Positions 11,054 to 44,327 of a DNA stretch of 64,000 nt are shown in pieces. The DNA lies in NCBI GenBank assembly GCA_016198125.1, contig JACQJG010000018.1, positions 2,843 to 66,842 on the forward strand. The letters are read 5' to 3'. Under the pieces are notes generated by a model. The model ran no database searches and had not been told where the DNA came from. It saw only the letters and a program-made list of their open reading frames with translations. Made by a program: the position numbers and the translations under genes. How positions within the stretch are numbered: position 1 is the first letter of the stretch; each line of letters begins with the position of its first letter. The DNA comes from Candidatus Iainarchaeum sp. Its GTDB lineage: Archaea; Iainarchaeota; Iainarchaeia; Iainarchaeales; VGJJ01.

Positions 11054-13579
11054 TCATGATTGAGCAAGGACTTGGACTTCTTTTTGCAGGGCTTGAACCT
11101 TGTCTGTTTTTTCCCACGTGAATTCAGGTTCATTTCTTCCAAAGTGTCCATACGCTGCCGTTTTTTTGTAAATGGGCCTGCGCAGGTCAAGGGCTTCAAT
11201 GATTCCTTTGGGGGTTAAGGGAAATATGTTGCGCACGGCTTCGGATAAAACTTCTTCGCTTACCTTTCCAGTGCCAAACGCGTTCACGTATACACTTACC
11301 GGTTGTGCCACTCCAATGGCGTAAGCCAATTGTATTTCGCATTTATCCGCGAGCTTGGCCGCTACAATGTTTTTGGCAATGTAGCGCGCCATGTAGCACG
11401 CGCTGCGGTCCACTTTGTTGGGCTCTTTTCCGGAATTGTGGCAAACAAATCCGTTGGCCGTATAAGTGTGTGAAAATGGAATATTCAAATCATATGTATG
11501 GGAAAAAGAGGGTATTCTATTTTGTAGTTTCGAATAATAGTGCCCCATATAATAGAGTTCTTGAAGTTTGAGGAATTCTGGTTCATTTTTAAAAAATTCT
11601 TCATACGTTTCTGTGAATTCTTTCAATTTTTCATAGGTTAATTCTTTTGTAGCTTTGCCTTCATTGCTTCTTGTAAATCGTGCAATTTTACATTTATCCA
11701 ATTTCTGTTCTTTTAGTGGGAGCTTTTTGAATAGATGAATAATTCTGTTTCGTTGGTTTGGAATGATTAACCAATCTTTTTTTCCAATGGACTTTCCTTC
11801 TAATATTTTTTGCTTTCGTGAAAGTTTGAATCCAATGTTTTCTAAAAATAAGTTACCACCTTTGCTTCCTTTGATGGTTAAGTCGTAGCGGTCATGTTTG
11901 GAGTTAATCAGCCTTCCTTTTATGTAAGCGGGTTTTTTTCCAACTTTAACAGTTCTTAGCACAGAAATGATGCCAAAGTTAAGCAAAAGTAACTGAGTTT
12001 GCTCAGCTAACTTTTTGCTTGTGGTGGTCAAATGGATTCTCTTTGTGTTCTTATTTCGTCCATCGATTCGAATGCTGCCATCCGTATCAAATAATCCGCG
12101 TAAAAACGCGGCGCAATTATTTTTACTGGCATTAAATATGGCTGTTGGAACGACTTTTTCATACGATTTTGCGTAATTGAGGCCCAAATTTTTCAAATAC
12201 GCCCTAAGCTCTACTCCTCCAATATAGGCCCAATGACCATAAACGTTGCCTTTATCGTTAAAGAGCCTAAAGAATACGTTTTGAACAATCGTTTTCATTT
12301 CGTTTTCGCATACGCATATTTTGAGGTGTCCTTTATCTGTGCAATCTCCGTCGCCGACCGATAAGCCCAGTAAGTAAGCATAATCTTCAGTTAATTTCTT
12401 TGGAAAAATATATTTTTTCTTTCTTCCTTCCGCTGTTCCTTCCCTATATGCATATTTAAACTTTGGAATTTCGTTGTCGCCAAAGAATCGGTTTTTTGTT
12501 TGAATAGCGAGCCAGTCGTTAGATACGAGTTTTTCAACCGGTTTCCAAACATAGTTTCCTGCGGGGTCTATGACCCGTATATTGTGATTGGGGGTTGCTT
12601 CTAATGAATACCCGTCATACGTTTGAATGATCTCGGTTTGCTTAATTCCGTTATCATACCAGTCTCCTGCTGGCATGGGGTGTACATCTGTTTTTACAAG
12701 CAAACTGTTTTCTCCAACTCTTTTACATTCGTCAAGTTTGATTAACCCTTTTTCAGTGTTAACAAGTGAATCGCCTGCCAGGCAAAACGCGCCTCCTCCG
12801 TGGGGCGCGTACCCTCCATACGTGTCCACAATGATTTTTCTTCCGGTTAAACCCGAGTCTGCCACAGGGCCTCCAATTTCAAATTTTCCTGTAGGGTTTA
12901 CAAAAATTTTTGTTTGCCCATCCATCATATTCCCGCAAACGGGTTCAATGACCTTCTCAATAAGGGTGTTTCGGATTTCCTCATGGTTTAACCCTTTTCG
13001 GTGGTGGGCGCTGACTACAACAGTGTCAATGCGTTTGGGTTTCCCGTTTTCGTATTCAATGGTGACTTGGCTTTTGCCATCCGGGTAAAGCCATTCAATT
13101 TCACCGCTTTTGCGTGCATGGGATAGTTTTTGCGTGAGTTTGTGTGCGAGGGTAATGGGTAATGGCATTAATTCAGGGGTTTCATTGCATGCAAATCCAA
13201 ACATCATGCCCTGGTCTCCCGCCCCTTCTTCTTTGTGCAGGCCTTCTCCTTCGTTGACTCCTTGTGCAATGTCAGGGGATTGTTCGGACACGGAAATCAG
13301 AACGGCACACGTGTCCGCGTCAAAGCCCATGTCCGTGTGAGTGTATCCTATTTCACGGATTGTATCGCGCACTACTTTCTGGAAGTCGATTCTGGCTTTT
13401 GTGGTGAGCTCTCCTGCCACCATTACAAAACCCGTTTTAATCAGGGTTTCAATTCCTGTACGCGAATAAGGGTCTTGTTTCAACACTGCGTCTACAATGG
13501 CATCGGATATTTGGTCGCACGTTTTGTCCGGATGGCCTTCGGTTACGGATTCGGATGTGAAATAGTATTTTCCCCTCAT
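11054..13579 (-). CDS. metK: S-adenosylmethionine synthetase, bacterial/eukaryotic type (MetK), with an in-frame ~450-aa intein
   Basis: From M (cat 13577-13579): [33 protein letters not shown]... and the MetK signatures. The P-loop GGGAF|[11 protein letters not shown] is split by a Cys...HN insertion. The exteins total about 391 aa. The longer ORF to 13783 adds a non-conserved basic leader. Confidence 0.9.
11435..12784 (-). mobile_element. Intein (Hint domain plus LAGLIDADG homing endonuclease) inserted in the metK P-loop
   Basis: It begins with CLAGDSLV after GGGAF and ends with FVCHN, directly followed by S ([11 protein letters not shown]). Block B is TPNHNIRV. There are two LAGLIDADG-type motifs, [12 protein letters not shown] and [14 protein letters not shown]. 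Confidence 0.85.
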
Positions 13580-13851
13580 GTTTGTCACAGGATCACCTTG
13601 TAAGGATGAACGCTGGAATGTTTTTAAGTTGATTTTGGTGCATCCAACGTTTTGATTTTTTTTTATACCGGCGCGCAAAGGAATTTTTTTTCCAACCCGC
13701 ATTCGGCTCTTAGGAATCGAACGGGTTCTCTGCTTTGGCGTTTTTTTCCTTTTTCGCGTTGTTCTTTGGCGTGGGCCATTCAAATGGCCCGCGCGCGTTG
13801 GACGCGTGCTTTCAAGCGTGCGTTTTGCCGGGCTTTTGGATCAATGATTTG

Positions 13852-13893
13852 AAAAATAAAAAAGGGGTTAAAGTGCCCAAGATTTTTGGGCAC
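13852..13893 (-). terminator. Hairpin plus T-tract terminator downstream of the 13909-14454 gene
   Basis: Perfect 8-bp stem gtgcccaa/ttgggcac (13873-13893), followed on the minus strand by ccccttttttatttttcaaa. Confidence 0.45.
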
Positions 13894-13908
13894 GTTTAAC
13901 GTTAAAAC

Positions 13909-14454
13909 TTATTGGCAAGGCCAATTTTCTGGGGTGTAAACGTCATAGACGTACACCCATTCCTGGTGGGTATCCTGGGAGTTGAAGATTAACGCTCCTG
14001 ATTCCACTGCGTTTGTTGTTGGGAACTGGAATGGAATCATTTTTCCTGCAAACGGAAGGGCGTCCTTGGCGCTTCCCCCAGAAGAAACCAGGTTGGCTGT
14101 TAGATTGGTTTGCGTGCCTGCGTTGGACCACGCGCCAAAGCCCCATGCCAAGTTTTCTTCAAAGGGTTGTTCCCGGCCATACCAAATGTCAGAATGCTTG
14201 AAGGTTGCAATGGCTCCAACAGGCACTTTAACATACCCGGGGCCGATGGCATACACTTGGGCCAGGGTTGAAACTGTGGGGGCTGAATCAAACAACCAGG
14301 AAGCCCATGATGCAAAATCCTGGGCCGTGGTACAACCAATAGGGGTGGGCGGAACGAGTAATTGTCCTTTCACTTGGGGGCCTTCCCGCGCAGAAGTTGT
14401 TCCTGCAATTCCAATCAAAAGAATGAACGATACTAGGAGCAGTGCATAACGCAT
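13909..14454 (-). CDS. Secreted hypothetical protein with signal peptide
   Basis: 181 aa with N-terminal MRYALLLVSFILLIGIAGTTSA, followed by a Gly/Thr/Ser/aromatic-rich domain. Confidence 0.5.
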   Translation of the reverse strand: MRYALLLVSFILLIGIAGTTSAREGPQVKGQLLVPPTPIGCTTAQDFASWASWLFDSAPTVSTLAQVYAIGPGYVKVPVGAIATFKHSDIWYGREQPFEENLAWGFGAWSNAGTQTNLTANLVSSGGSAKDALPFAGKMIPFQFPTTNAVESGALIFNSQDTHQEWVYVYDVYTPENWPCQ

Positions 14455-15314: not shown

Positions 15315-16016
15315 TCATTTTGGGCGTCTGAGGAGAATGGTTTTCTTAAACCCCCGTGTTTCGTACGCTCCCTTTCGCCCACGTAGAGTTAGCTTGATTC
15401 GCTCGCCAAATTTGGTTTTTTGTTTTCCAAGCATGGCTTGGCGGCGTGTAATTTGTTCGCGAAGTACGCCCATTAAATCGCCGTGTGTGACGATTACGAT
15501 GTGAACTTCCACTGGTCGGCCAGTATATTGCCCGGAAACGCGAACTCCAAATTCTTCAGCGTTTCTTCTAATGCGTGCCAGGACTTCAGCCGGCTGTTCT
15601 ACGATTGAGGTGTGCGTTTTTCCTTGGATCCAGCGTTGATTGAATTCTTCCAGGGATAAGTCTCCGTATAGGGCGTCGAACCATTTTTGGTCTCGTATTT
15701 TTCCGTACTTGAATTTTTCTTCTGCTCTTGAGGCTAGGACTTTGACGGGTAGTTTTTGGGTGCGAACGGCACGCATGAGCGAGCCGCGAATAAGGCTCTG
15801 GAACTGCATGTTACGGCCAACAGGGCTTGCATAAAATTTGACAATTTTTTGAGTTTTTGTTTTTCCCAATTCGTTAGCCAACGTTTTTCCAATCGCAGTT
15901 CCTTGGGTCCTGCCGCGTACTGTTAAATTACCGCTCGTAATACTGTCAAGGGGGCGTTCTCCGTGTCGAAAAATGTGAATTACAACTTTGGCGGGTTGTT
16001 CCGAGTTTTTAACCAT
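15315..16016 (-). CDS. Histidine phosphatase superfamily (phosphoglycerate mutase-like) protein
   Basis: VVIHIFRHGERP carries the RHG catalytic motif, and a conserved THGDLMG sits near the C-terminus. Confidence 0.6.
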   Translation of the reverse strand: MVKNSEQPAKVVIHIFRHGERPLDSITSGNLTVRGRTQGTAIGKTLANELGKTKTQKIVKFYASPVGRNMQFQSLIRGSLMRAVRTQKLPVKVLASRAEEKFKYGKIRDQKWFDALYGDLSLEEFNQRWIQGKTHTSIVEQPAEVLARIRRNAEEFGVRVSGQYTGRPVEVHIVIVTHGDLMGVLREQITRRQAMLGKQKTKFGERIKLTLRGRKGAYETRGFKKTILLRRPK

Positions 16017-16025
16017 TCGAAAACC

Positions 16026-17426
16026 TTAACTTAATTTTCGGATGACCCCTTTTTCAGCATCCACTTCAATGCGTTCTCCGCTTTTAAGAATGGAGGTCGC
16101 GTTGTTGGTCCCGGTAATACATGCAATTCCGATTTCGCGGCTGACAATGGCCGCATGCGAGGTGATTCCTCCACGGTCTGTAATAATGGCTTTTGCTTTT
16201 TTCATTAAAGGAACAAAATCTGGAGTTGTTTCAGGGGCAACCAAAATGTCTCCTTCTTCGAAATGCTTAAAATCATCTGGTGAAATGATCACCTTTGCGG
16301 TTCCTTGTATAATTCCACCTTTGGAAGCAACCGTTCCTTTTAGTTCGCTGGCCTGAATTGTTTGCGTTCCAACTATTTCATTTAGTAATTCTTGAAGTTC
16401 TTCGCCTGAAAAAAGGTGTTCTGTTCCGCTTTCATCCAAGAAACTACCCCACTTGGGTTTTCGTTCGGGCAGTTTATTGGGAAGTTTTCTTCCTTGTTTT
16501 AAAAATGAAAGAATTTCTCGGCTGGAAAGATAGCAAAACTCTTCGTAGGTTAAACCGTTTTCTTTGGCGATTTCTTCCATTCTTGGACGGGACAAAAAAC
16601 GACTTTGGCGGTTACTTCGGCGCAGTGCGTCCGCCAAAACGATAAAACCGCCATCAAGCGAAAAAGGGGTAAGGTTTTTTTGGGTTTTGGAACTTTTTTT
16701 TGTGCAATCCTTCCTTTTTCAAGGATTTTTTGTATTTCTTCCAAGCATTTTTCCTCGGAATACGCTTCTCCGCCCCAATGGTGGGTTCCAAACCATTCAA
16801 ACGTATTCACGTGTTTTTTTATCGCTGTTGCAATGGATTTATTCTCTTTGACAAAATGAGCGGTTACATTGGATGGCTGAATTTTTGGAAAATTTTTTTG
16901 AATCAACCGCGCAATTTTTTTAACGCCAAACGATTGTTCTTCAAGCCAAGTTGGTTTTCGCAGTGCTTCAACTTGTCTAACAATTTCCTTTGAGTCAAGT
17001 GTTGGATACTTTTTGAAAATATATGCTTCCAGTTCATCTGCCAATTGAAGGCTTAGCCACCAAAAACCCGCCAAGTCTTGATAGGTGTCAAATAAAGCTT
17101 CCAAGTAATCGATTTTTCCGTATTTTTTCTTTAAAATATTCAAGTGCCTCTGCTTGGTTTCTGCACCTATTTCTTCAACTTTTTTTTATGAATTCTTTGA
17201 TGTGATTGTTGTTGTCCATTTCTTTTATGGCGTTTTTCATGGCTTCCTTGTCAGTCATCTTTGTCAGGCTGTTTCCGTCCAAAAACAGCATGGAGTTAAA
17301 ACGCACATTAGAAAAAGTGGTTTTCACGCTTTTAACCGTATTCCAAGGCGACCAAAAACAACCCGAAAGTACTGGTTGAACCCAGCGGCCATAATTAATC
17401 CATTCGTTTTTGTTGAAGCGAGGCAT
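16026..17426 (-). pseudogene. Degraded paralog of the 6190-7527 PEP-utilizer domain gene, in three ORF fragments
   Basis: Fragment 17175-17426 (MPRFNKNEW...) aligns with the N-terminus of the 445-aa paralog. Fragment 16550-17143 aligns with its middle (HWGGEAYS vs FGWYGLSLL). Fragment 16026-16637 carries the PEP-utilizer mobile domain (GDILVAPETTPDFVPLMKKAKAIITDRGGITSHAAIVSREIGIACI). The frame breaks coincide with a T8 run (17181-17188) and an A6 run (16594-16599). Confidence 0.55.
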
Positions 17427-17583
17427 ATCTATTGGCTCTTTTGAAGTCTTAAAGAATTGTGCAAGGGGGCTATTAAACTGTTATGTGACAAGGGCTTTGC
17501 GGGCTTCCTCTCAACACTTGCAAGGCATTATTGCAATGCCCTTGTTCGTAGCAACCAGCCGAAACGGGTTCTACGCAATGCGA

Positions 17584-17655
17584 TGCGATCGCCGGGAATC
17601 GGACCCGGGTCCCGACCTTGGCAAGGTCGGATCATAGCCACTAGACCACGATCGC
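17584..17655 (-). tRNA. tRNA-Gly (anticodon GCC)
   Basis: Minus-strand RNA GCGAUCG...CCGACC-UUGCCAA-GGUCGG...CCGGGUCCGAUUCCCGG...CGAUCGCA. Confidence 0.8.
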
Positions 17656-19797: not shown

Positions 19798-20694
19798 ATG
19801 TCTTTTCACACGTGCATGCCTTCGGTGATGAAACCTGGGTGGTTGAAAATCCGTCCGCCGGATTTGAAACCGTTTGAGGAAACGCGTTCGGTTATTTCTT
19901 CTTTGAATTTGCACACGATTTGTGTGGAAGGCCATTGCCCCAATCAAAGCGAGTGCTGGTCCAATAAGACTGCGTCATTCATGGTGTTGGGGAAAACGTG
20001 CACGCGGGGATGCAAGTTTTGTGCAGTAAGCACTGCGTTGAAGGGCGATGTCCTTGATTCGCTGGAACCTGCGCGTTTGGGAGCGGCAGTAAAACGGTTG
20101 GGCTTGGAGTATGTGGTGATTACTTCCGTGGACCGCGATGACTTGGAAGACCAGGGGGCTGGACACATTGCACAGTGCATTCGTGAAGTGCGCCGCCAGT
20201 CTTCAAGCACGGTAGTGGAAGCATTGATCCCGGATTTTAGGGGCAGTGAAGAATGCCTGCAAACCGTGCTTCAATCCAACCCCCACGTGCTTTCCCATAA
20301 CCTTGAAACAGTAAAGCGCTTGCAGTCGTATGCCCGGGACCGCCGGGCTTCGTACGAGCAGTCTTTGGGGGTTTTAAAAAATGCAAAAAAACAGTGCCCA
20401 TCAATGTACACCAAGTCCGCGCTCATGTTGGGCTTGGGCGAAACGCAGGAGGAAGTAATACAGTCCATGAAAGACTTGCGGGTCATGAACGTGGATTTTT
20501 TGTCTTTGGGGCAATACTTGCGTCCTTCTGAATGGCATGTGCCTGTTCATGAATACGTGTCTCCGGATCAGTTCAAATGGTATGAAGAGAAGGGGTTTGA
20601 GTTGGGTTTCAAGTTTGTGGCCGCAGGGCCTTTTGTGCGTTCTTCTTATCGTGCAGGAGAATACTTTGTTGGCAACATGGTTTCGCGTGTTTGA
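19798..20694 (+). CDS. lipA: Lipoyl synthase
   Basis: WLKIRPP...CVEGHCPNQSECW plus the radical-SAM CTRGCKFC motif, and a conserved C-terminal RSSY. Confidence 0.85.
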   Translation: MSFHTCMPSVMKPGWLKIRPPDLKPFEETRSVISSLNLHTICVEGHCPNQSECWSNKTASFMVLGKTCTRGCKFCAVSTALKGDVLDSLEPARLGAAVKRLGLEYVVITSVDRDDLEDQGAGHIAQCIREVRRQSSSTVVEALIPDFRGSEECLQTVLQSNPHVLSHNLETVKRLQSYARDRRASYEQSLGVLKNAKKQCPSMYTKSALMLGLGETQEEVIQSMKDLRVMNVDFLSLGQYLRPSEWHVPVHEYVSPDQFKWYEEKGFELGFKFVAAGPFVRSSYRAGEYFVGNMVSRV

Positions 20695-20721
20695 GCGCAT
20701 TCTTTTAAATGCGTAAATGCT

Positions 20722-21936
20722 TTGGATGAGGGTATGCCTTTCAAGTCTGCTGCGTCGTTTGAAGTGAAATTCTTGCAAGTGTTAAATGAGAAGGGCGAAG
20801 TGGATTCAAAGTTGGAGCCCAGGATTTCTGGGGAGCGCTTGAAACAGTTTTATGAGTGGATGGTGCTTGCCCGTGTTTTTGATGAAAAGGCCATTGCCTT
20901 GCAGAGGCAGGGGCGCATTGGAACGTATGCTTCCGTAAGAGGCCAGGAGGCATGCCAGGTGGGTTCTGCGTGCCTGTTGAACGATTTGGATTGGGTGTTT
21001 CCTGCATTCAGGGAGAATGCCGCGCTCATTGTGCGCAAAACTCCGTTGAAAAATCTTTTGTTGTACTGGGGGGGCGATGAACGCGGCAGTGTTCCCCCGC
21101 TCGGAGTAAGGAATTTTCCGGTGGCCATTCCGGTTTCCTCGCAAATTCCTCATGCGGTTGGAGCAGCGTGGGCATGCAGGCTGCGCAATGAGAAAAATGT
21201 TTCATTGGTGTACTTTGGAGATGGAGCCACTTCAAGGGGCGATTTTCACGAGGCATTGAATTTTGCCGGCGTGTTCAAGATTCCAGTCATTTTCCTGTGC
21301 CAGAATAACCAGTACGCAATTTCGGTTCCGCGTTCAAGGCAATCGGCAGCGCAAACGCTGGCCCAAAAGGCGGTTGCGTATGGAATAGAGGGCATTCAAG
21401 TGGATGGAAATGACCTTCTTGCAGTGTATGTGAGTGTGCAGGAGGCCTTGGAGCGTGCGCGTGCAGGTAAAGGTCCAACGCTGATTGAGTGTTTTACGTA
21501 TCGTTTGGGGGATCATACCACTTCGGATGATGCCAAGCGCTACCGTACTGAAAGTGAAGTGGAGGAATGGAAGAAGAAGGACCCCCTTGCGCGTTTTGAA
21601 CTGTACTTGGCTTCCAAGAAGCTTTTTTCAAAGGAGTATCAGTCAGAGGTGTTGGAGCGTGCCCAGGCGTTGGTAGACCAGGCAGTACAGGAATACGAGT
21701 CTGTTCCGCTTCCTGCGGTAAGCGATTTGTTCAACTATGTTGCGGCACAATTGGATGCAAATGTTTCCATGCAAAAAGCCCGCTATTTGGAAGGGGTGGG
21801 CGCCCAGGATGTAGTACCTGTAACTCCGGTAGTTGCACCCCTCGTGAAAGGCCCAGCGAATCAATCTTCAAAGCCAGGCAAGAAGCGTGTTTCGCTTGAG
21901 GGATCTTCGAAGGCAGACGAGGTGCCGGACTTTTAG
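20722..21936 (+). CDS. pdhA: 2-oxoacid dehydrogenase E1 component alpha subunit (TPP-dependent)
   Basis: 404 aa with an E1-alpha TPP-binding fold, including YRLGDHTTSDD and GDGATSRGDFHEALNFA. Confidence 0.85.
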   Translation: MDEGMPFKSAASFEVKFLQVLNEKGEVDSKLEPRISGERLKQFYEWMVLARVFDEKAIALQRQGRIGTYASVRGQEACQVGSACLLNDLDWVFPAFRENAALIVRKTPLKNLLLYWGGDERGSVPPLGVRNFPVAIPVSSQIPHAVGAAWACRLRNEKNVSLVYFGDGATSRGDFHEALNFAGVFKIPVIFLCQNNQYAISVPRSRQSAAQTLAQKAVAYGIEGIQVDGNDLLAVYVSVQEALERARAGKGPTLIECFTYRLGDHTTSDDAKRYRTESEVEEWKKKDPLARFELYLASKKLFSKEYQSEVLERAQALVDQAVQEYESVPLPAVSDLFNYVAAQLDANVSMQKARYLEGVGAQDVVPVTPVVAPLVKGPANQSSKPGKKRVSLEGSSKADEVPDF

Positions 21937-21941
21937 GGGTT

Positions 21942-22925
21942 TTGCTTATGAGTGTCATGAACATGGTGCAGGCCATTAATGCAGCGTTGGGGCAGGAAAT
22001 GCAGGCGGATGCCCGTGTCATTGTGCTGGGAGAGGATGTTGGAAGGGATGGGGGCGTGTTCCGCGTTACAGAGGGATTGTTGGAAAAGTTTGGCGAGAAC
22101 AGGGTTATTGACACTCCGCTTTCAGAGTTGGGCATTGTGGGGGCTTCCATTGGCCTTGCAGTGAACGGCATGCGTCCAATTGCAGAAATTCAATTTGATG
22201 GTTTCACGTATGCAGGTTTGGACCAGCTCATTGACCATGCTTCAAGGATTCGCACGCGTTCCAGGGGCGCGTACTCTTGTCCGTTGGTAGTGCGTTTTCC
22301 CTGCGGGGGAGGCATTCACGCGCCCGAACATCATTCTGAATCTCCTGAAACATACTTTGTTCACACTCCTGGGTTGAAAGTGGTGTGCCCTTCCACTCCC
22401 GGCGATGCAAAAGGATTGCTTGCTTCTTGCGTTCAGGACCCGGACCCTTGTATTTTCATGGAACCCAAGCGCATTTACCGTGCCGTTAAAGAGGAAGTGA
22501 ACGAGGAGCGTTACACGATTCCTTTTGGAGTTGCAAAGGGCGTGCGCGAAGGAGAAGATGTTACATTAATTGCGTGGGGGGCCATGGTGCGCGAGTGCGT
22601 GAAAGCCGCAGACCAATTGGAAGCAGAACACGTTTCGTGTGAAGTATTGGATGTGCGCTCGCTTAAACCCTTGGACGTGAATGCCATTGTAAACAGCGTG
22701 AAGAAAACCGGCCGCGTGCTGGTGGTACATGAGGCTCCAAAAACCCTTGGGTTGGGCGCGGAAATTGTTGCACTCATCCAGGAACATGCATTTCTTTCCT
22801 TGGAAGCCCCGGTTGGGCGCGTGACAGGGTTTGACGTGGCCATGCCCTTGTACAAACTGGAAGAGGCCTACCTTCCCAATGTGAATCGCATTGTGGAAGG
22901 CGTGCGCAGAACGGTTTTGTTTTAA
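21942..22925 (+). CDS. pdhB: 2-oxoacid dehydrogenase E1 component beta subunit
   Basis: 327 aa with a transketolase-like pyrimidine-binding and C-terminal domain (VIVLGEDVGRDGGVFRVT, IDTPLSELGIVG). Confidence 0.85.
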   Translation: MLMSVMNMVQAINAALGQEMQADARVIVLGEDVGRDGGVFRVTEGLLEKFGENRVIDTPLSELGIVGASIGLAVNGMRPIAEIQFDGFTYAGLDQLIDHASRIRTRSRGAYSCPLVVRFPCGGGIHAPEHHSESPETYFVHTPGLKVVCPSTPGDAKGLLASCVQDPDPCIFMEPKRIYRAVKEEVNEERYTIPFGVAKGVREGEDVTLIAWGAMVRECVKAADQLEAEHVSCEVLDVRSLKPLDVNAIVNSVKKTGRVLVVHEAPKTLGLGAEIVALIQEHAFLSLEAPVGRVTGFDVAMPLYKLEEAYLPNVNRIVEGVRRTVLF

Positions 22926-22988
22926 TGCGCGCAGGCATTGGTTTTAAATGGATTGGGGGTGTTATTTTTTGGTTTTGAGGGACCGTGC

Positions 22989-23864
22989 ATGCGCGTGCAA
23001 ACCTTTTTAATTTTGTTTTTAATGGGAATCCTGCTTGCCCCTTTTGTGTTTGGCCATGAAACAGGCGAGGAGGAGCCTGTGGATGTTCACGCGGAAAACG
23101 TGCCCGTGGAAGCTTCTTTCACGGATTCCGCGCAGTTGGCTGAATTTCTTTCCGCTCAATCCTTGAATGTAGCTGGCATTGCAGCCCTTATCCTGTTGGG
23201 CGCGGTTGCATATGCCGTTCGCGTGCGCCCCCTTGGGGGGCATGCAAAGAAAATGCTTTTTTTAGTCATCCTGGTCACGTCCCTGTTGACCACTGCATAT
23301 TTGGCGGGTTCCACGCTGTACTTGAATGCCGCGTCCTTTACCCAGGGGCCCGTGCACTGGCACGCGGACTTTGAGGTGTGGAATTGCAGTGAAAAGTTGG
23401 ATTTGAAGGACCCTGAAGGGTTTTCCAACAAGGAAGGGGAAGAGCTCGTGCACGAGCATGGAGATGACCGCGTGCACGTGGAGGGCGCGTTGTTGGATGA
23501 AACCCAGGGCCAGCTTGGTTACTTTTTTAAGGCCGTGGGCGCTGAATGGAATGACGAAAGATTCGGGTATCCAACAAACCAGGGGGACGTGGTGCTTCCT
23601 GCAAAGGGAACGTGCAATGGGAGGCCCGCAGAACTCCAATTCTTCTTGTACCGCATTGTAAACCCGGGAAATGCAAGGCAATGGGTGTACAAGCAGTACA
23701 AGCTTTCCCCGCATGACGCGTATGAAACGGTCATGGCGCCTTATGGAAACGTTCCTCCAGGGGACTGCTTGATCGTTGAATTTGATGCTGTCAAGGAGCG
23801 TTCCGAACACGTGTGCTCGTCGTACGCGCATGCCATTCAAAGGGGGGAGTTAAATGGCCGTTGA
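22989..23864 (+). CDS. Membrane protein with a His/Cys-rich extracytoplasmic domain, embedded in the dehydrogenase cluster
   Basis: A signal-peptide-like start (MRVQTFLILFLMGILLAPFVFG) and two hydrophobic helices. A soluble domain follows with HWHADFEVWNC, EHGDDRVH and several Cys. The longer ORF begins at 22938. Confidence 0.45.
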   Translation: MRVQTFLILFLMGILLAPFVFGHETGEEEPVDVHAENVPVEASFTDSAQLAEFLSAQSLNVAGIAALILLGAVAYAVRVRPLGGHAKKMLFLVILVTSLLTTAYLAGSTLYLNAASFTQGPVHWHADFEVWNCSEKLDLKDPEGFSNKEGEELVHEHGDDRVHVEGALLDETQGQLGYFFKAVGAEWNDERFGYPTNQGDVVLPAKGTCNGRPAELQFFLYRIVNPGNARQWVYKQYKLSPHDAYETVMAPYGNVPPGDCLIVEFDAVKERSEHVCSSYAHAIQRGELNGR

Positions 23865-24564
23865 AGCGTATCTTCCCACCATTGCAACGGTTGTTGTAAC
23901 CGCGCTCATCGATTCCATTAACCCGTGCGCGATTGGCGTGCTCATCCTCATGATCTCCATCCTCCTTGGAAAGCGCAAGTCCATGCACGACATGCTCTTA
24001 TACGGGGGGCTGTACATTTTCGCGGTTTTCCTGACCTACCTGCTGGCAGGCATTGGCCTTACATACGCGTTGAGCACCATTCCATTGTTTGTAACCGAGT
24101 ACTTGTCCATTGGGGTGGGGCTGCTCATTGTTTTTGCCGGCCTGTTGGAGGTAAAGGATTTTTTCTGGTATGGAAAAGGCTTTTCCCTGCAAATCCCTGC
24201 AAGGTTTGCAGCCAAGATCGACCGGTACGCGCAGAACGTGACCATTCCCGGGGTCATTTTGGTGGGCATGTTCGTGGCAGCCGTGGAATTGCCGTGCACG
24301 GGCGCCCCTTATCTTGCAATCATAACGTTGCTGTCCCAGTACTTTGACTTTACCGCGCTCTTGTTATTGGTCTTGTACAACGTCATATTCGTTTTGCCGC
24401 TCATATTCATTTTGCTGGCCGTGGCCGCGGGGAAAAGACTTTCAACGTTCAAGAAGTGGAAGCAGGATAATCGGGGAACGATGCGCTTGTTTATCGGGTT
24501 GATGTTGATTGGCATGGGGTGGTTGTTGATGTTGATTGCCAACGGAACCATTAACTTTGGGTGA
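23854..24564 (+). CDS. ccdA: CcdA/DsbD-family thiol-disulfide transporter (cytochrome c biogenesis transmembrane protein)
   Basis: Six predicted TM segments. The two conserved cysteines sit in INPCAIGVL (TM1) and ELPCTGAPY (TM4), typical of DsbD-beta/CcdA. Confidence 0.75.
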   Translation: MAVEAYLPTIATVVVTALIDSINPCAIGVLILMISILLGKRKSMHDMLLYGGLYIFAVFLTYLLAGIGLTYALSTIPLFVTEYLSIGVGLLIVFAGLLEVKDFFWYGKGFSLQIPARFAAKIDRYAQNVTIPGVILVGMFVAAVELPCTGAPYLAIITLLSQYFDFTALLLLVLYNVIFVLPLIFILLAVAAGKRLSTFKKWKQDNRGTMRLFIGLMLIGMGWLLMLIANGTINFG

Positions 24565-24578
24565 GGCGTTAAAACAGC

Positions 24579-24920
24579 ATGCAGGAAAAAAAAGGCCGTA
24601 AAAAGGGGCAGGTGCGAATGCCCGCCCGCGCACGCGGTGCAGGGAATGTGAACGTGCACATCGTTAAACGCAAAGGCCATTTGGAAAGGTTTGATGAACG
24701 CAAGGTGTATGCTTCCTGTTATGAAGCGTGCCTTTCCGCGCAAATCCCCAATTCCACAGCTGAACACATTTGCGGGCTTGCCTCGGACGACGTTAAAAAG
24801 TGGGTGTTGACCCAGCGCCAAGTGAATTCACACCAAATTTTCCTGCGCGTAGCAGAATTCTTGCGCAAACACCACAAGGATGTGGCGTTCATGTATGAAA
24901 CCCACCGCGACGTTTCATGA
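24579..24920 (+). CDS. ATP-cone domain protein
   Basis: VHIVKRKGHLERFDERKVYASCYEA matches the ATP-cone start (V-x-KRDG-x-x-E-x-FD). The gene ends 4 nt inside the E2 gene start. The true start may be the internal M (24618). Confidence 0.55.
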   Translation: MQEKKGRKKGQVRMPARARGAGNVNVHIVKRKGHLERFDERKVYASCYEACLSAQIPNSTAEHICGLASDDVKKWVLTQRQVNSHQIFLRVAEFLRKHHKDVAFMYETHRDVS

Positions 24921-26293
24921 AAACAGGGATGGTCATGGCATTGGATTTCAAATTCCCGGATGTAGGGGAAGGGATTACGGAAGGCGAGCTTATTCGCTGG
25001 CTGGTGCGTGAAGGCGATTCTGTAAAACAAGACCAGCCCTTGGCCGAAGTTGAAACCGACAAAGCGGTGGTTGAGATTCCTTCTCCGCGTGCAGGCACTG
25101 TACTCAAATTGTATTTCAAGGAAGGCCAAACCGTTAAAGTGGGTGAAGTAATGATAACCATTGGAGAGAAAGGTGAAAGCGTTTCAAGTGTGCCTGCCAA
25201 AGAAAAGCCTGCACAGCCTTCTCTGGAGTCCAAGCCCAATACGTCTTCCGTGGTGGGGGTTCTTGAAGAAGCTGCAGAACCTGTTCCTGTGCAAAAGCGT
25301 TCCGGAGTCTTTCCAGGGGCTATTCCTGCGTCTCCCAAGCCAGGCGGGTTGCCCGTGCTTGCGGCTCCATCCACGCGTCGTATGGCCAGAGAGTTTGGAG
25401 TGGATATTTCAAAGGTGCGCGGTTCTGGAGAGCAGGGGCGCGTGCTGGAAGAAGATGTGGTGCGCGCTTCCCACACCCAGCAGGCAGTAAAAGACTTGCA
25501 CGCCCAAGTCAAAGCAGTTTCATCAGAGGAATCCTTTTCGCGCATTCCGCTTTCAAAGGCCGCGTATGCAGAAGGCGAGGCCCTTGAGCGCGTGCCTGTG
25601 AAAGGCATTCGAAAGGCCACGTGGAAGCACATGGCGGAGGCTTTTACTCACACGGTGCCGGTCACTCACATGGACGAAGCCGATGTCACTGCATTATGGG
25701 ACGTGCGCGAAAAGGAAAAAATTCTCACACAAGAAAAAGGAATTAAGCTTACGTTCCTGCCGTTCATTGTTAAATCTGTTGTGGCCGCGTTAAAGGAACA
25801 CCCGTATTTGAATGCTTCATTGGATGAAGAGGCAAGCGAAATTGTGTTGAAAAAGTTTTATCATATTGGAATGGCCGTGGATGCAGGCGAAGGATTGCTC
25901 GTTCCGGTGATCCGAAACGCGGACAAGAAAAGCATTCTGCAAATCGCCAGGGAAATGAATGCATTGGCTGAAAAAGCAAAAAGCCGTTCGCTGGACTTGA
26001 GTGAACTCAAAGGTGGCACGTTCACTCTCACCAATGTGGGTTCTATTGGCGGTCAATTTGCAACGCCTGTCATTAATTTTCCTGAAGCCGCCATTTTGGC
26101 TACCGGGCGCATTTACGAAAAGCCGGTCGTTGAAAAGGGTTTTTTGTCCCATAAGGTTTTGGTGCGCAAGGTCCTGCCGCTTTCCCTGACATTTGATCAC
26201 CGCATTCTGGACGGAGCAGAAGCCGCACGCTTTACCAATGACATAATCAAGCGCCTTGAAGACCCGGATTTGTTGCTGGTGGAAATGGAGTAG
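24917..26293 (+). CDS. pdhC: Dihydrolipoamide acyltransferase (E2) of a 2-oxoacid dehydrogenase complex
   Basis: N-terminal lipoyl domain (EVETDKAVVEIPSP), an E3/E1-binding segment, and a C-terminal catalytic domain with DHRILDGAEAARF. Confidence 0.85.
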   Translation: MKTGMVMALDFKFPDVGEGITEGELIRWLVREGDSVKQDQPLAEVETDKAVVEIPSPRAGTVLKLYFKEGQTVKVGEVMITIGEKGESVSSVPAKEKPAQPSLESKPNTSSVVGVLEEAAEPVPVQKRSGVFPGAIPASPKPGGLPVLAAPSTRRMAREFGVDISKVRGSGEQGRVLEEDVVRASHTQQAVKDLHAQVKAVSSEESFSRIPLSKAAYAEGEALERVPVKGIRKATWKHMAEAFTHTVPVTHMDEADVTALWDVREKEKILTQEKGIKLTFLPFIVKSVVAALKEHPYLNASLDEEASEIVLKKFYHIGMAVDAGEGLLVPVIRNADKKSILQIAREMNALAEKAKSRSLDLSELKGGTFTLTNVGSIGGQFATPVINFPEAAILATGRIYEKPVVEKGFLSHKVLVRKVLPLSLTFDHRILDGAEAARFTNDIIKRLEDPDLLLVEME

Positions 26294-26299
26294 TTTTTC

Positions 26300-27040
26300 A
26301 TGCCGGTTTTTGGAAAAGGCCGTGTCCGAAGGCCAAAGTTCTATGGAAAACCCGAACTTGAAGGGGTAAAGATTGAACTCTACAGGGAAAGCGTAAAGGC
26401 CGGCGCGGCTTCTGGCAGAAGGTACAGGCGAAGCAGAGGGTACAAGTATGAGATCACTCCCTTGTCGGGGGTTGAAAGATTCCTGCATTTCAATGTCACA
26501 CACTGGGTTTTAAAACGCTACAAGAAGGTAAAACGTCCTGTGAACGTGCTTGACTGGGGGTGCGGCCAAGGCACAGCTATCACTGAGTTGGTGAAAAGGC
26601 TTCCAAGCAAGGTTAACGCGTACGGGTATTCAAAAGATTTTTACCCTTCGTGGACTGAAAACCCGCATGTTAAATTCATCCAGGAAACCCACGACCAAGT
26701 GCCGAGGTTTTTTAAAAAAATTCCATTGGATCTTATCCTTTCGCTTGCAGGCCTGCACCATTTGCAGGCAAGCATGAGCCGCGGGGTTTCTCTTGCCGTG
26801 ATAGAGAATAGAAGGAGATGGTTGAAGGAATACAAAAAATACATTTTGAGGCTTGCAGAGCGGCTGGCTCCCGGGGGTGTGCTGGTGACAAGTTTTATTG
26901 GCCTGCCCAGCCATGTGGACGAATTCGCGTCTTCGTTCAATCCCAAAAAAGACAGGGTTCGGGCACGCGTCTTGCATTGTTCTTATTATCCAGGCGCCCC
27001 TGCGGGCGTGGACAATATTTTCATGCTTGAAAAGATTTAA
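26300..27040 (+). CDS. Class I SAM-dependent methyltransferase
   Basis: Motif I is VLDWGCGQGTAITELV. Confidence 0.55.
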   Translation: MPVFGKGRVRRPKFYGKPELEGVKIELYRESVKAGAASGRRYRRSRGYKYEITPLSGVERFLHFNVTHWVLKRYKKVKRPVNVLDWGCGQGTAITELVKRLPSKVNAYGYSKDFYPSWTENPHVKFIQETHDQVPRFFKKIPLDLILSLAGLHHLQASMSRGVSLAVIENRRRWLKEYKKYILRLAERLAPGGVLVTSFIGLPSHVDEFASSFNPKKDRVRARVLHCSYYPGAPAGVDNIFMLEKI

Positions 27041-36537: not shown

Positions 36538-37035
36538 TTAAGCGTTTTTTGGGTTTTGAATGGAAACCACTACCAGGGGTTCGTTAAGCGTTGGGGTGTG
36601 CGTTTTGTGGGCGTGGGCCAGTTGTTCTTCTGCTACTTCGAGTTTGCGCAGTTCGACTCCAATTTGATGGAATTGAAGGGTTGCCATGAGCGTTAGAACC
36701 GTGCCTCCAAGGATGAATGCCACTTCCACAAGGGTGTAGTACACATGGGCGGATTCAATGAATTTGAGTAAGGTGAATCCTGTGGCGAACAAGCCCAACC
36801 CAATGCCGATTATGTTTAATTGGACGCGTTGGTGGGCCAACAGCGTGCGCTGCTTGGCCAGGGTGGTGCGTTGGTCTACCGAGTAATCTTCCGGGTCAAA
36901 TGCATTCATGCGTGGGCCTATTACGCGTTCAATGTATTTTAATCTTTCAGCAGGCCTTTCCGCTTCCATCGGATTACCTTTAAAGCGTGGTTTGTTCTCT
37001 TGTAGAGTATGGAATTGGATGGTTGGATTGCCCAT
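36538..37035 (-). CDS. DUF202 (YidH-like) membrane protein
   Basis: ERTTLAKQRTLLAHQR plus two or three TM helices. The start may be the internal MEAERP. Confidence 0.5.
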   Translation of the reverse strand: MGNPTIQFHTLQENKPRFKGNPMEAERPAERLKYIERVIGPRMNAFDPEDYSVDQRTTLAKQRTLLAHQRVQLNIIGIGLGLFATGFTLLKFIESAHVYYTLVEVAFILGGTVLTLMATLQFHQIGVELRKLEVAEEQLAHAHKTHTPTLNEPLVVVSIQNPKNA

Positions 37036-38103
37036 GCCGTGGAGCGTTTAAAGGATTCGGATGCGCGCTTGCGGGAACTTTCAATGCACGTGGGTAAAGT
37101 CTCCCGCACGGGTTTAAGGGCCTTAAACAGCCCGTTTGTATTGGAGGACGCGCTTATTCAAGCAGTGCCATCCGTGTCCTTTACAGGCAAAGTGGCTGGA
37201 GTTGACTCCGGTTTTTTGGACCGTGCACTGTACGTGTTGGACATCCTGCTGGTCAAGTCTGTGGGCGTGGTGTTTGAGTACCAGGGCAATCGTTTGGTGA
37301 AATCCGTGTACTACCCGCGTTTTTTTCAGTTTCCAAAACCCGAGGTGAGCGCGGAGGGCTTGGAACGGGATGAGGTGCACTGCAGTGTTTCGCTCACGCG
37401 TTTGCGCGAGGAAGTGCGCGTGGCCAGGGAAATCATTGAACGCCATTCTCCCCAATTTCTTTTCCTGGATGGTTCTCTGGTGCCCCAGTTCATGGACAAG
37501 CCGGGGAAGGATTCCAAGGTAAAAGTATTCTACCATGAAGTGTTGAACGACTTTCAACTGTTATTTCAAACCGCATTCGATCATGAGTGCACGCTGGTGG
37601 GCGCCGTTGAGGACTCCCGGGGAAACCGTTTTCGGGCGCTGATGGAAGAAACCATTTTTCCAGGTCTTGGCGTTCATGCGGATTTGGGTTCGTGCAAGGA
37701 TGCAAGCCTATTGGAATATGTGCTCAGTCCAGGAGAGCGCACGCTTGCATTTTCTTATGCCCAGGACGTTTCCAAGCACCCTGTACTTGCGGACATGAAT
37801 GAGAAATGGGCGCGCGCCCTGCATGCCCTGTATGTGAAGCCTTCAGCATACGACCGGCCATTGCGGGTGGAATTCCTTTGCCATGATTTAACTCAAATGC
37901 CTGCGTGCGCCGGCGAAGTGGCGGGGATTGCGCTGAACCAGTCTTCACTGCACAAGGAATACGCGTTTCCTGCAGTGTTGATTGAAGCGGATTTGCGTGC
38001 CAGGCTGAAACCGGAGGAAGTGGACTGGGTGTTTGAGCGCATCATGCAAAAACTTGGGCGTAAAAACTTTTGGCTGCAGCGCAGGGATAAGAGGCCGTTT
38101 TAG
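37009..38103 (+). CDS. nurA: NurA 5'-3' nuclease
   Basis: 364 aa with the NurA-domain acidic motifs GVDSGF, FLDGSL and AVEDSRGNRF. Confidence 0.75.
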   Translation: MELDGWIAHAVERLKDSDARLRELSMHVGKVSRTGLRALNSPFVLEDALIQAVPSVSFTGKVAGVDSGFLDRALYVLDILLVKSVGVVFEYQGNRLVKSVYYPRFFQFPKPEVSAEGLERDEVHCSVSLTRLREEVRVAREIIERHSPQFLFLDGSLVPQFMDKPGKDSKVKVFYHEVLNDFQLLFQTAFDHECTLVGAVEDSRGNRFRALMEETIFPGLGVHADLGSCKDASLLEYVLSPGERTLAFSYAQDVSKHPVLADMNEKWARALHALYVKPSAYDRPLRVEFLCHDLTQMPACAGEVAGIALNQSSLHKEYAFPAVLIEADLRARLKPEEVDWVFERIMQKLGRKNFWLQRRDKRPF

Positions 38104-38149
38104 CCAAAAAGTTAAATATTACTGGGGTAATACTATTAATGGTGGTTTT

Positions 38150-38335
38150 ATGGAGACAGTGCCGGCTAAGATAACTCCAAAGCTTGTGCAGGAAATGGAT
38201 GACTTGGTCAAAGATGGGTGGTATGCCTCGCGCAGCGAAGTCATCAGGGATGGCGTTCGGGAGCTTGTTAAAAAGCTTCGAAGTGAACGCATTATGCGCG
38301 CAATCAAAGAGGATGTGGAATGGGGCCTAAAGTGA
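38150..38335 (+). CDS. Ribbon-helix-helix (CopG/Arc-type) antitoxin-like protein
   Basis: From the internal M: METVPAKITPKLVQEMDDLVKDGWYASRSEVIRDGVRELV, an RHH pattern. It overlaps the PIN gene start by 16 nt. Confidence 0.5.
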   Translation: METVPAKITPKLVQEMDDLVKDGWYASRSEVIRDGVRELVKKLRSERIMRAIKEDVEWGLK

Positions 38336-38793
38336 GGGCAGTCATTGACGCAGGTCCTATTATTCACTTGCGCGAGTTGGGCCTTCTCAGAGCCTTTAAT
38401 CCGTTTGAGCTTTTTACAGTTCCACTGGTTTTTAATGAAGTTAAAGTCCTGCCTTCTTTCATTTCAGTTGAAGCTGCGTTTGATGGAATGAAAGCCGATC
38501 TTATTGCCGCAGAGTGCGGGCTGGGTTTGGCGGAAAGCCAGTGCATGGCTTTGGCCAAGAAAAAGGAAATTTTGTTGTTTTTGACAGATGACCTGGACGC
38601 GCGTACAACAGCGGAGGCTTTGGGATTGGAACCCCACGGAACAATTGGAATTTTGTTGAAAGCATATCGCAAAGGCCTTTTTTCGCGTAAAGAAGTTGTG
38701 AGGCATATTCAAAGTATTCCACGAAAATCCACCCTGTATATTACACAGGAAATTATAGAGTATGTTGTCCGTGAGATCAAGCGTAAGAGGTAA
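38320..38793 (+). CDS. PIN-domain protein (toxin-like nucleic-acid-binding protein)
   Basis: AVIDAGPIIHL (N-terminal Asp) and FLTDDLDARTTAEALG with further acidic residues, consistent with PIN. Confidence 0.55.
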   Translation: MGPKVRAVIDAGPIIHLRELGLLRAFNPFELFTVPLVFNEVKVLPSFISVEAAFDGMKADLIAAECGLGLAESQCMALAKKKEILLFLTDDLDARTTAEALGLEPHGTIGILLKAYRKGLFSRKEVVRHIQSIPRKSTLYITQEIIEYVVREIKRKR

Positions 38794-38800
38794 TGTTGAA

Positions 38801-39010
38801 ATGAAACCGTTTCCAAAGCCAAATCCAAAATCAAAGCAAGAACCTGAATATCCTTCCAGGCACGTGCGCGTGTGCCCTCAATGCGGTTCTATGCATGTTA
38901 AAGAGTACATGGGGGGCGTGTTGGGCCAAAAGTTTCAGTGCATGGAATGCGGGTACATTGGCCCGGTATTGGAATCTTTGAAGGGTTTTTTTAGGGAAGG
39001 GAAAAAGTGA
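38801..39010 (+). CDS. Small zinc-ribbon protein
   Basis: CPQCGS...CMECGY four-Cys ribbon. The start is chosen at MKPFPKP. Confidence 0.35.
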   Translation: MKPFPKPNPKSKQEPEYPSRHVRVCPQCGSMHVKEYMGGVLGQKFQCMECGYIGPVLESLKGFFREGKK

Positions 39011-39019
39011 GGGCGTGCA

Positions 39020-39904: not shown

Positions 39905-39941
39905 GGGGAAACATGCAAACGTTAAAATGCTTTAACATTCA

Positions 39942-41504: not shown

Positions 41505-41673
41505 CTCGGCCTTTTTGGGAAAAAGGCCTGCGAAAAGCCTTTTTGCTTTGGCAAAAAGCCTTGGGAAAAAAGCGGGATATTGTGTTGCAATACCCCTCTA
41601 ATATCAACACCCTTCAAGGCGCGCTTTCCTCAATGAAGACACCCCTGCCTTTAGTCGGGGGGGGATGTCCTTT

Positions 41674-42048
41674 TTATTTTGTAGTAAGGTACGCGATTGG
41701 AATGAGCCCAAGCACGGCGCCTCCTAGAAGGATAAGCAATGCGCTCAGAAGCACAAAGCCAATGCTTTTGAGGTCGTTAAATCTTTTTTTTGCCTTTAGG
41801 ATTATTGTGCCAAGGGCGATGACAAAAATCGCGGCCACTCCCGCACCATACCGCGTGCCTGTTTGAAATGCGTTTTCGAAGTTTTCCAGGGGGGTGAATG
41901 CCCCCAGCACGCCCCCAACGACTCCCCCTGCAAGAGCCACGAGTACCAGATATGCAAAATAGAACCCAACTCCTTGCACGGGCGTTCTTTTTAATTTGAA
42001 TGTTGTAAGCCCGTAAAACATTCCCTGACCGGCTTTTTTCCTGACCAT
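41674..42048 (-). CDS. Small membrane protein (3-4 TM)
   Basis: 124 aa, highly hydrophobic (GFYFAYLVLVALAGGVVGGVLGAF, VAAIFVIALGTIIL). Confidence 0.4.
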   Translation of the reverse strand: MVRKKAGQGMFYGLTTFKLKRTPVQGVGFYFAYLVLVALAGGVVGGVLGAFTPLENFENAFQTGTRYGAGVAAIFVIALGTIILKAKKRFNDLKSIGFVLLSALLILLGGAVLGLIPIAYLTTK

Positions 42049-42079
42049 GGCTGAAATACAATGCCCGGCTTATTAACCT

Positions 42080-44002: not shown

Positions 44003-44003
44003 G

Positions 44004-44306: not shown

Positions 44307-44327
44307 TTCTTTTTCAGGGTCTTTTTA

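Follow-up and report, generated by a model that had tools for sequence, protein, structure and literature searches.

A double-motif LAGLIDADG intein in the triphosphate-binding loop of a bacterial-type S-adenosylmethionine synthetase from a DPANN archaeon

Introduction

What is a methionine adenosyltransferase gene of the bacterial type doing on an archaeal contig, with some 450 extra codons in the middle of its phosphate-binding loop, and do the gene and its insert share a history? The question is raised by positions 11054-13579 of a 64-kb stretch of contig JACQJG010000018.1 of Candidatus Iainarchaeum sp.; "the window" hereafter means this whole stretch of analysed DNA, whose guanine-plus-cytosine (GC) content is 48.1%. 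A preliminary description of the gene, metK, had taken its product for a bacterial/eukaryotic-class S-adenosylmethionine (SAM) synthetase (MetK) split by an intein with two LAGLIDADG motifs, had considered an intein in metK unusual and had suggested that metK itself was horizontally acquired. The form of methionine adenosyltransferase (MAT) expected in most archaea is a different one, of the PF01941 type. The analysis reported here makes it very likely, in our judgement, that metK is a resident gene of a DPANN archaeon and that it has been invaded by a class-1 LAGLIDADG intein of recent lateral arrival.

Results

Two exteins make up a full-length bacterial-type MetK

The metK precursor gene lies within an open frame that spans 11054-13783 on the minus strand and consists of the following parts.

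11054-13579, minus strand: metK precursor gene, 841 codons, stop codon at 11054-11056 (open reading frame (ORF) listing and translation)
12785-13579, minus strand: N-extein, 265 amino acids, comprising the N-terminal and central domains of MetK and the start of its C-terminal domain, and ending in HGGGAF
11435-12784, minus strand: intein, 450 amino acids, 51.8 kDa, pI 9.4; its Hint splicing domain holds a LAGLIDADG homing endonuclease with two motifs
11057-11434, minus strand: C-extein, 126 amino acids, the remainder of the MetK C-terminal domain, beginning with Ser+1

The frame of 2,523 nucleotides that starts at ATG 13579 is unbroken, and the N-terminus of the encoded MetK coincides with the start of its relatives. 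A TTG-initiated ORF of 909 amino acids was considered as the real product and rejected, since the Shine-Dalgarno-like sequence described below and the N-termini of homologs favour the ATG. The masses predicted are 94.6 kDa for the precursor and 42.9 kDa for the spliced MetK, next to the 51.8 kDa of the intein.

Joined to one another, the two exteins (391 amino acids) match the metK model TIGR01034 at 585 bits (cut-off, 309.4) over model positions 2-375 of 377, and PF00438, PF02772 and PF02773 all match them contiguously over the junction (E 4e-43 to 1.5e-68). Identity to E. coli MetK is 59% over the full length (BLASTP); in this alignment GHPDK (precursor residues 15-19) and GAGDQG are conserved, and E. 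coli residues H14, D16, K17, D118, K165, D238, R244, K245, K265, K269 and D271, which belong to the active site of that enzyme, are all identical. The insertion point falls between F262 and S263 of the mature E. coli protein, two residues before K265, in the GGGAFSGKD loop. The 45 PDB sequence matches of the exteins at E<=10 are confined to the MetK class (bacterial MetKs, 507-526 bits, with E. coli at 507; human MAT, about 418 bits) and include no chain of the archaeal MAT type. Nor do the exteins have a Pfam match to the archaeal MAT family PF01941 at E<=0.01, and none of the window ORFs scanned was recognised as an archaeal-type MAT. Sequence comparison thus confirms that the exteins together form a full-length MetK of the bacterial/eukaryotic class. 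The class assignment made in the preliminary description was borne out by profile searches with the exteins alone, which MetK models match and the archaeal MAT family does not, and the motifs and coordinates that it quoted (GHPDK, the GGGAF/C and VCHN junctions, the 450-residue insert) are all correct.

The insert has the blocks, profiles and predicted fold of a class-1 intein

Four segments of the insert could be assigned by alignment.

12584-12595, minus strand: intein block B, T64-P-N-H67 (TxxH), aligning with ATPDH of the Mtu RecA intein
12347-12376, minus strand: LAGLIDADG motif 1, residues 137-146, with catalytic Asp145 (alignment of 121 inteins)
12077-12106, minus strand: LAGLIDADG motif 2, residues 227-236, with catalytic Asp235 (alignment of 121 inteins)
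11435-11494, minus strand: blocks F and G of the intein (residues 431-450), with His449-Asn450 at the end (alignment and TIGR01443)

All column counts given for the intein refer to 121 aligned MetK inteins. Each of these (121/121) begins with Cys1, and SGK directly follows the intein in 120/120 relatives; Ser+1 is the native serine of the GGGAFSGKD motif. The two endonuclease motifs read LLGLSVGDG (Asp145) and LRGLFDTDG (Asp235) in the window. G140, G144, D145 and G146 of motif 1 are invariant in 121/121 inteins, as are F227, G230, D233 and G236 of motif 2, where D235 is present in 117/121. Blocks F and G contribute D432, P436, N444, H449 and N450, all invariant in 121/121, and the window intein also has H439. 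The insert matches Pfam PF14528 (LAGLIDADG_3) at 66.5 bits against a cut-off of 22.5, over residues 225-301, and TIGR01443 (intein_Cterm) at 24.2 bits against a cut-off of 15.6; the blocks at both of its ends can be aligned to two mini-inteins, Spl DnaX and Mtu RecA, the PDB sequence matches being marginal (E 0.002-0.02).

An AlphaFold2 model of the intein, built with 49 homologs, has a mean predicted local distance difference test score (pLDDT) of 93.6 and a predicted template-modelling (TM) score of 0.93. The top Foldseek match of this model in the PDB is the TliVMA intein 7qss (E 4e-21, TM 0.66/0.68), with a probability of 1.00 to solved inteins; PI-PfuI, PI-TkoII, PhoVMA and PI-SceI are the other leading matches, and lower down come mini-inteins and I-DmoI, each fitting one of the two sub-domains. 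When the intein is removed, the joined exteins give GGGAF-SGK, as found in 115/120 intein-free DPANN MetKs (the search pattern was unmatched in the remaining five) and in 75/77 bacterial MetKs. Sequence and model together confirm that the insert is a canonical intein of class 1 with a double-motif homing endonuclease of the LAGLIDADG family, and it is expected to splice and to cleave DNA. Hint blocks A, B, F and G are all present, and blocks, profiles and fold agree with the Cys...HN intein with two LAGLIDADG motifs that the preliminary description had placed in the phosphate-binding loop. A profile of the 121 MetK inteins found no further inteins in the window.

The same gene is uninterrupted in the closest relatives

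The MetKs closest to the window exteins, that is, the best 120 by extein similarity among the matches listed (66-78% identical), are intein-free in 120/120 cases. Two of them, L088 (GCA_964480125.1; GC 48.1%) and L090 (GC 47.6%), come from contigs that are syntenic with the window: a few genes downstream of their uninterrupted metK lies the series Rpr2-S19e-dsDNA_bind-L31e-eIF6-prefoldin-SRP54, colinear with window positions 5098 down to 790. The uninterrupted metK aligns to window positions 13576-12785 and 11434-11081 and so breaks exactly at the ends of the intein, with amino acid identities to L088 of 79% in the N-extein and 78% in the C-extein. In a neighbour-joining tree without support values, the window exteins group with intein-free sequences and most intein-bearing exteins lie elsewhere.

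The composition of the intein sets it apart from its surroundings. Its GC content is 36.7% and its GC at third codon positions (GC3) 34.9%, which makes it the lowest-GC stretch of 1350 nucleotides in the 64 kb, as compared with a GC of 48% and a GC3 of 48-50% in the exteins and with means +/- standard deviations of 49.3 +/- 2.2% (GC) and 53.5 +/- 4.6% (GC3) over 36 window ORFs. The nearest inteins for which DNA is available (L081, L084 and L085, 65-73% identical) have a GC of 32-36% and are flanked by DNA of 35-36% GC. Similarity of the intein and similarity of the exteins are also uncoupled: identity to the window intein reaches 73% for inteins that sit in exteins only 55-64% identical to those of the window, in other pairs inteins of 81-89% identity go with exteins of 52-61% identity, and over the 120 intein-bearing relatives the correlation between intein and extein identity to the window is r = -0.01. 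Because of the sporadic distribution of the intein, the empty syntenic site, the foreign composition, the uncoupled similarities and the conserved endonuclease, these sequence data point to homing across diverged DPANN lineages and to the intein having reached this lineage of 48% GC relatively recently, from a donor of low GC.

We note that the codon for Phe(-1) (12785-12787) is TTT in 5/5 intein-containing alleles with DNA (window, L081, L084, L085, L087) and TTC in 3/3 intein-free alleles (L088, L090, L001). This split could be a footprint of co-conversion or of target specificity, in a small sample confounded by host GC.

MetK inteins are widespread among DPANN archaea

A database search with the whole precursor retrieved at least 120 clusters of intein-bearing relatives among the matches listed, of about 820-880 amino acids and 51-69% identical, all with MetK and intein domains. 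In 120/120 of them the insert, C...HN, stands between GGG(A/C/S)(F/Y) and SGKD and the intein is 447-459 residues long. Six relatives of about 1235-1242 amino acids (P0029, P0032, P0037, P0039, P0045 and P0093) contain, besides the intein in the phosphate-binding loop (P-loop), a second LAGLIDADG intein of 405-406 residues, C...HN, inserted between GAGDQG and S(M/V)(F/I)G(F/Y) at a point that corresponds to G120/L121 of E. coli MetK. MetK therefore has at least two insertion sites, each in an active-site motif; the window MetK has the P-loop intein alone. When the intein alone was searched exhaustively against 1.84 billion representatives, the MetK inteins formed a group of their own (P0109 at 48%, P0245 at 38%, and fragments). 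Below this group identity fell sharply, to 28-33%, the matches being inteins of multi-intein proteins such as viral terminases and ribonucleotide reductase.

A literature search across 8 million full texts found no description of a MetK or SAM synthetase intein, and public records name the intein-bearing proteins only "methionine adenosyltransferase". The main text of a large intein survey by Novikova et al. 2016 does not mention MetK (PMC4760082). The view of the preliminary description that an intein in metK is unusual thus holds for the literature searched, in which none is described, and not for sequence databases, where at least 120 DPANN clusters carry one at the identical site.

A separate observation concerns L091 (CBCNOA010000021.1), where positions 666-1580 hold a free-standing LAGLIDADG_3 ORF of 304 amino acids about 1.2 kb from an intein-free metK. 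The product of that metK (P0122) is 75% identical to the window exteins, and the endonuclease gene lies outside metK.

Conservation of the enzyme and the intein in this copy

The window intein deviates at 2 of 98 columns conserved at >=95%, having Ser142 for Leu and Tyr441 for Phe. Among 317 MetK homologs (DPANN sequences with and without intein, and bacterial sequences), the exteins deviate at 1 of 85 near-invariant columns, where Glu replaces Asp (SGKE instead of SGKD); about 30% of the homologs have at least one such extein deviation. This Glu, at C-extein position +4, is encoded at 11423-11425, becomes residue 269 of the spliced MetK and replaces Asp266 of E. coli; its codon, GAG as against GAY, differs by a single-base change and lies beside the splice junction, within the presumed homing site. 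As so few conserved columns deviate in either part, both the enzyme and the intein of this copy are probably functional, and the Asp-to-Glu change beside the splice site stands out as an oddity.

The histidine of block B is normally among the most conserved residues of inteins. It is replaced by Gln in 84/121 MetK inteins (motif EGTxNQ), whereas the window intein and its closest intein relatives retain the canonical EATxNH. The pattern suggests that the Gln-bearing inteins may be a sub-family that activates the N-terminal junction differently.

The region upstream of metK

The 329-bp intergenic region 5' of metK (13580-13908) contains the following elements.

13590-13598, minus strand: Shine-Dalgarno-like AGGTGATCC, with a 10-nucleotide spacer to the ATG (read from the sequence)
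13633-13642, minus strand: 10-mer TGCACCAAAA, with an A/T-rich TATA-like box after it; candidate site for a promoter or regulator of metK
13773-13790, no strand assigned: perfect 8-bp inverted repeat GGGCCATT-TG-AATGGCCC, about 195 nucleotides upstream of the ATG (repeat search)
13852-13896, minus strand: hairpin GTGCCCAA...TTGGGCAC at 13870-13896 with a T-run at 13852-13863 (repeat search and sequence)

The first of these, AGGTGATCC, is presumably complementary to the 3' end of archaeal 16S rRNA. The 10-mer TGCACCAAAA occurs once in the 64-kb window and is shared with the leaders of the intein-free metK genes of L088 (908-917) and L090; the A/T-rich box follows it in all three related genomes, and the two are a candidate promoter or regulator element. 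The palindrome at 13773-13790, to which the preliminary description had drawn attention, is real. It is unconserved upstream of metK in L088 and L090, has no Rfam match and is probably not part of the intein/metK unit. The hairpin and T-run begin 13 nucleotides downstream of the stop codon of the neighbouring ORF 13909-14454, and their position makes them a probable terminator of that ORF rather than an element of the metK leader. As to a SAM riboswitch, Rfam gave no match at gathering score within the window, and a permissive scan of 13500-13960 at E<=10 gave three chance-level matches, none to a SAM riboswitch family.

The host and the origin of its metK

The remainder of the window encodes RLI/ABCE1 (771 bits; NCBIfam equivalog cut-off, 469), an archaeal CCA-adding enzyme (403 bits; NCBIfam cut-off, 281) and an archaeal DnaG (470 bits; NCBIfam cut-off, 300), along with a zinc-hook Rad50, HerA, ELP3 and a protein resembling aRF1/Pelota, and Rpr2, S19e, L31e, eIF6, prefoldin and SRP54 were recognised by synteny. 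Exact look-ups found no entry for the MetK precursor or for ELP3. ABCE1 has one 100% identical entry in the Logan assemblies, the next best match being 57% identical, and its labelled matches are Diapherotrites and Micrarchaeota; labelled MetK relatives belong to Woese-, Nano-, Aenigm- and Micrarchaeota and Diapherotrites. On these sequence grounds the host is a DPANN archaeon. SAM-consuming enzymes, namely a radical-SAM protein and ELP3, are among the products of the window.

The exteins are 57-64% identical to MetKs of Clostridia, Chloroflexi, Acidobacteria, Planctomycetes and bacteria of the candidate phyla radiation (CPR). A scan of contigs with the precursor found, by the conserved pattern DQGMMFGF, at least 600 intein-free metK loci, almost all bacterial. 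The bacterial-type enzyme is nevertheless the form present throughout the sampled DPANN relatives, with or without an intein, and in the neighbour-joining tree 89 DPANN leaves fall in a clade of 95 within which six bacterial sequences, two of them CPR, are nested. The literature search gave no relevant paper on bacterial-type MetK in DPANN archaea. Inter-domain transfer of metK is plausible from these sequence relationships, as proposed in the preliminary description; however, since the extein GC is host-like, the neighbourhood conserved and the bacterial type general in the sampled DPANN, any such transfer would be old and shared and not particular to this genome. A recent bacterial import of metK itself was considered and rejected, the extein GC being equal to that of the host and the locus syntenic with other archaeal contigs; the recently acquired piece would be the intein.

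A MetK of the bacterial type, with 62% identity to the window exteins, is also encoded on a contig labelled "uncultured Methanosarcinales archaeon" (L065). Either this contig is mis-binned or the bacterial-type enzyme occurs in a further archaeal lineage.

Other features of the window

The second lowest-GC stretch of the window, at about 39.6-39.9% in windows of 1350 nucleotides, extends over 16000-17550. It holds ORF 16026-16637, with a PEP-utilizers mobile domain, and ORF 16550-17143, which lacks a Pfam match, adjoins tRNA-Gly(GCC) at 17584-17655 and may be another foreign segment. Positions 19798-27040 encode a radical-SAM protein and the E1 alpha (20722-21936), E1 beta (21942-22925) and lipoyl-domain E2 acyltransferase (24917-26293) subunits of a 2-oxoacid dehydrogenase complex, which is of bacterial style although the genome is that of a DPANN archaeon. 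In 37009-46694, HerA (39942-41504) is found near the zinc-hook Rad50 (44328-46694, opposite strand), with the unassigned ORFs 42080-43681 and 43532-44269 between them; the scans made of the window identified no clear Mre11 or NurA.

Discussion

Splicing, endonuclease activity and inactivity of the precursor are deduced here from the class-1 mechanism and from the biochemistry of E. coli MetK. Translation would yield the 94.6-kDa precursor. With the intein standing between GGGAF and SGK(E)PNKVDRS the triphosphate-binding loop is broken, and the precursor should therefore be inactive. The steps of class-1 intein splicing are an established mechanism. Here, Cys1 would carry out the N-S acyl shift, aided by Thr64 and His67 of block B; the resulting thioester would be attacked by the native Ser+1 in a transesterification; Asn450 would cyclise with the help of His449 and of Asp432 and His439 in block F; and a final O-N shift would restore the normal GGGAF-SGK peptide. 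The products would be a scar-free MetK of 42.9 kDa and a free, basic, site-specific endonuclease of 51.8 kDa. The latter would cut intein-free metK genes of the type seen in L088 and L090 at the junction of GGNGGNGCNTT(Y) with (TCN/AGC)GGNAAAGA(Y), whereupon repair would copy the intein into them. The intein would have come from a DPANN lineage of lower GC, the metK gene itself being resident.

A number of observations weigh against this reading. Residue 142 of motif 1, Ser in the window, is Leu in 115/120 relatives, and the substitution could weaken the endonuclease. Asp is found at position +4 of the C-extein in 316/317 MetK homologs, where the window has Glu. Two intein profile models, PF14890 (32.5; cut-off, 35.8) and TIGR01445 (22.1; cut-off, 24.5), score just below their cut-offs on the insert. 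The placement of the exteins rests on a neighbour-joining tree that lacks support values. Finally, the inteins of the relatives are also AT-richer than their exteins, with GC3 gaps of 2-17 points, and a Lys-rich composition accounts for part of the low intein GC. The 14-point GC3 gap in the window is accordingly suggestive of recency and not proof of it; because the relatives' inteins are also somewhat AT-richer, composition alone is inconclusive.

The alternative that has most to be said for it is that the intein is old, vertically inherited and possibly domesticated, retained because its splicing switches SAM synthesis after translation, for instance under redox control by way of Cys1 with Cys448 or of a Cys at extein position -2, instead of being a recent selfish element. 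The identical site and near-constant length (447-459 residues) of the intein in 120 proteins from such diverse DPANN groups as Woese-, Nano-, Aenigm- and Micrarchaeota would fit such a history, as would the conservation of Cys448 beside the C-terminal His-Asn in 104/121 inteins and the extein Cys at -2 (GGGCF) in 37/120 relatives. Inteins in ATP-binding motifs have moreover been argued to be able to serve as conditional switches (PMC4760082), an argument that favours domestication. We nonetheless consider this explanation unlikely, given that the nearest extein relatives, including syntenic ones of the same GC, have no intein, that the intein is compositionally foreign and that intein and extein similarities are uncoupled; conserved catalytic residues in the endonuclease are predicted by ongoing homing and unneeded by a domesticated switch, and nothing in the sequence demonstrates conditional splicing. 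We give similarly little credence to the broader proposition that the P-loop and GAGDQG inteins of MetK make up an undescribed, DPANN-wide family whose splicing is conditional and could be tuned by a disulfide involving Cys1/Cys448 or the extein Cys(-2), or by the His-to-Gln variants of block B.

It appears still more improbable that the insert is degenerate and does not splice, leaving metK a pseudogene or an inactive copy in a cell that obtains SAM otherwise. The Asp-to-Glu change just past the junction, the Leu-to-Ser change in LAGLIDADG motif 1 and the two sub-threshold profile models would agree with decay; DPANN archaea are often host-dependent, and the search for a second SAM synthetase was confined to the 64-kb window. 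Yet the frame of 2,523 nucleotides is uninterrupted, all class-1 splicing residues are present, the deviations amount to 2/98 intein columns and 1/85 extein columns (at least as many extein deviations being found in 30% of homologs), the AlphaFold2 model is confident, the gene is preceded by a good Shine-Dalgarno sequence and, further upstream, by a conserved motif, and the window encodes consumers of SAM. That metK is a mis-assembled or mis-binned bacterial fragment, as its 57-64% identity to MetKs of Clostridia, Chloroflexi, Acidobacteria and CPR bacteria and the few bacterial sequences nested in the DPANN clade might lead one to suspect, is scarcely credible: the gene stands amid 64 kb of archaeal genes, its extein GC is that of the host, metK followed a few genes on by Rpr2-S19e-L31e-eIF6-prefoldin-SRP54 recurs on independent archaeal contigs, and the closer homologs (66-78%), where labelled, are all on archaeal contigs.

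Recent invasion of a resident metK by a homing intein, which remains the reading that we prefer, adds SAM synthetase, a core metabolic enzyme, to intein hosts that otherwise belong mostly to replication, repair and nucleotide metabolism, and would extend to a non-Walker loop the rule of intein insertion into the most conserved loops that bind nucleotide phosphates. The empty site in syntenic relatives of the same GC, set beside a foreign intein, provides an unusually clean natural comparison for homing in uncultured episymbiotic archaea. For annotation, the finding means that the inteins in "methionine adenosyltransferase" records of about 840 and 1240 amino acids are invisible to users. Should splicing prove conditional after all, SAM supply in reduced, host-dependent archaea would be gated post-translationally.

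Comparison with known systems places both partners. With E. coli MetK (1fug/1rg9) and human MAT2A the exteins share all three domains, and the active-site residues align with those of E. coli MetK; the differences are that the gene is archaeal and intein-interrupted and that Glu takes the place of a near-invariant Asp after K265. The same reaction is expected of the archaeal-type MAT (PF01941), to which there is no detectable sequence relationship. Like the solved inteins TliVMA and PhoVMA (7qss, 7qst), PI-PfuI (1dq3), PI-TkoII (2cw7) and PI-SceI (1vde), the MetK intein has a Hint domain split by a double-motif LAGLIDADG endonuclease, runs from Cys1 to His-Asn with a nucleophile at +1, is of comparable size (about 430-540 residues) and has a matching predicted fold (Foldseek E 4e-21 to 3e-10, TM up to 0.68). 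It differs from them in sequence (11-18% identity) and in host, theirs being the V/A-ATPase A subunit, ribonucleotide reductase and DNA polymerase and this one the metabolic enzyme MetK. With the phosphate-loop inteins of RecA/RadA, DnaB, VMA, RFC and other ATP-using proteins, the subject of the survey by Novikova et al. 2016 (PMC4760082), it shares insertion into the most conserved phosphate-contacting motif of an essential ATP-using enzyme. Since the site is the most conserved motif of an essential enzyme, the target DNA would be conserved and imprecise loss intolerable to the host. What distinguishes the present case is that GGGAFSGKD, the loop of MetK, does not belong to the Walker A type and that MetK lies outside the dominant host network of replication, repair and nucleotide metabolism. 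The proposed mechanism is an ordinary one, that of a textbook bifunctional intein; the host protein and the site are new.

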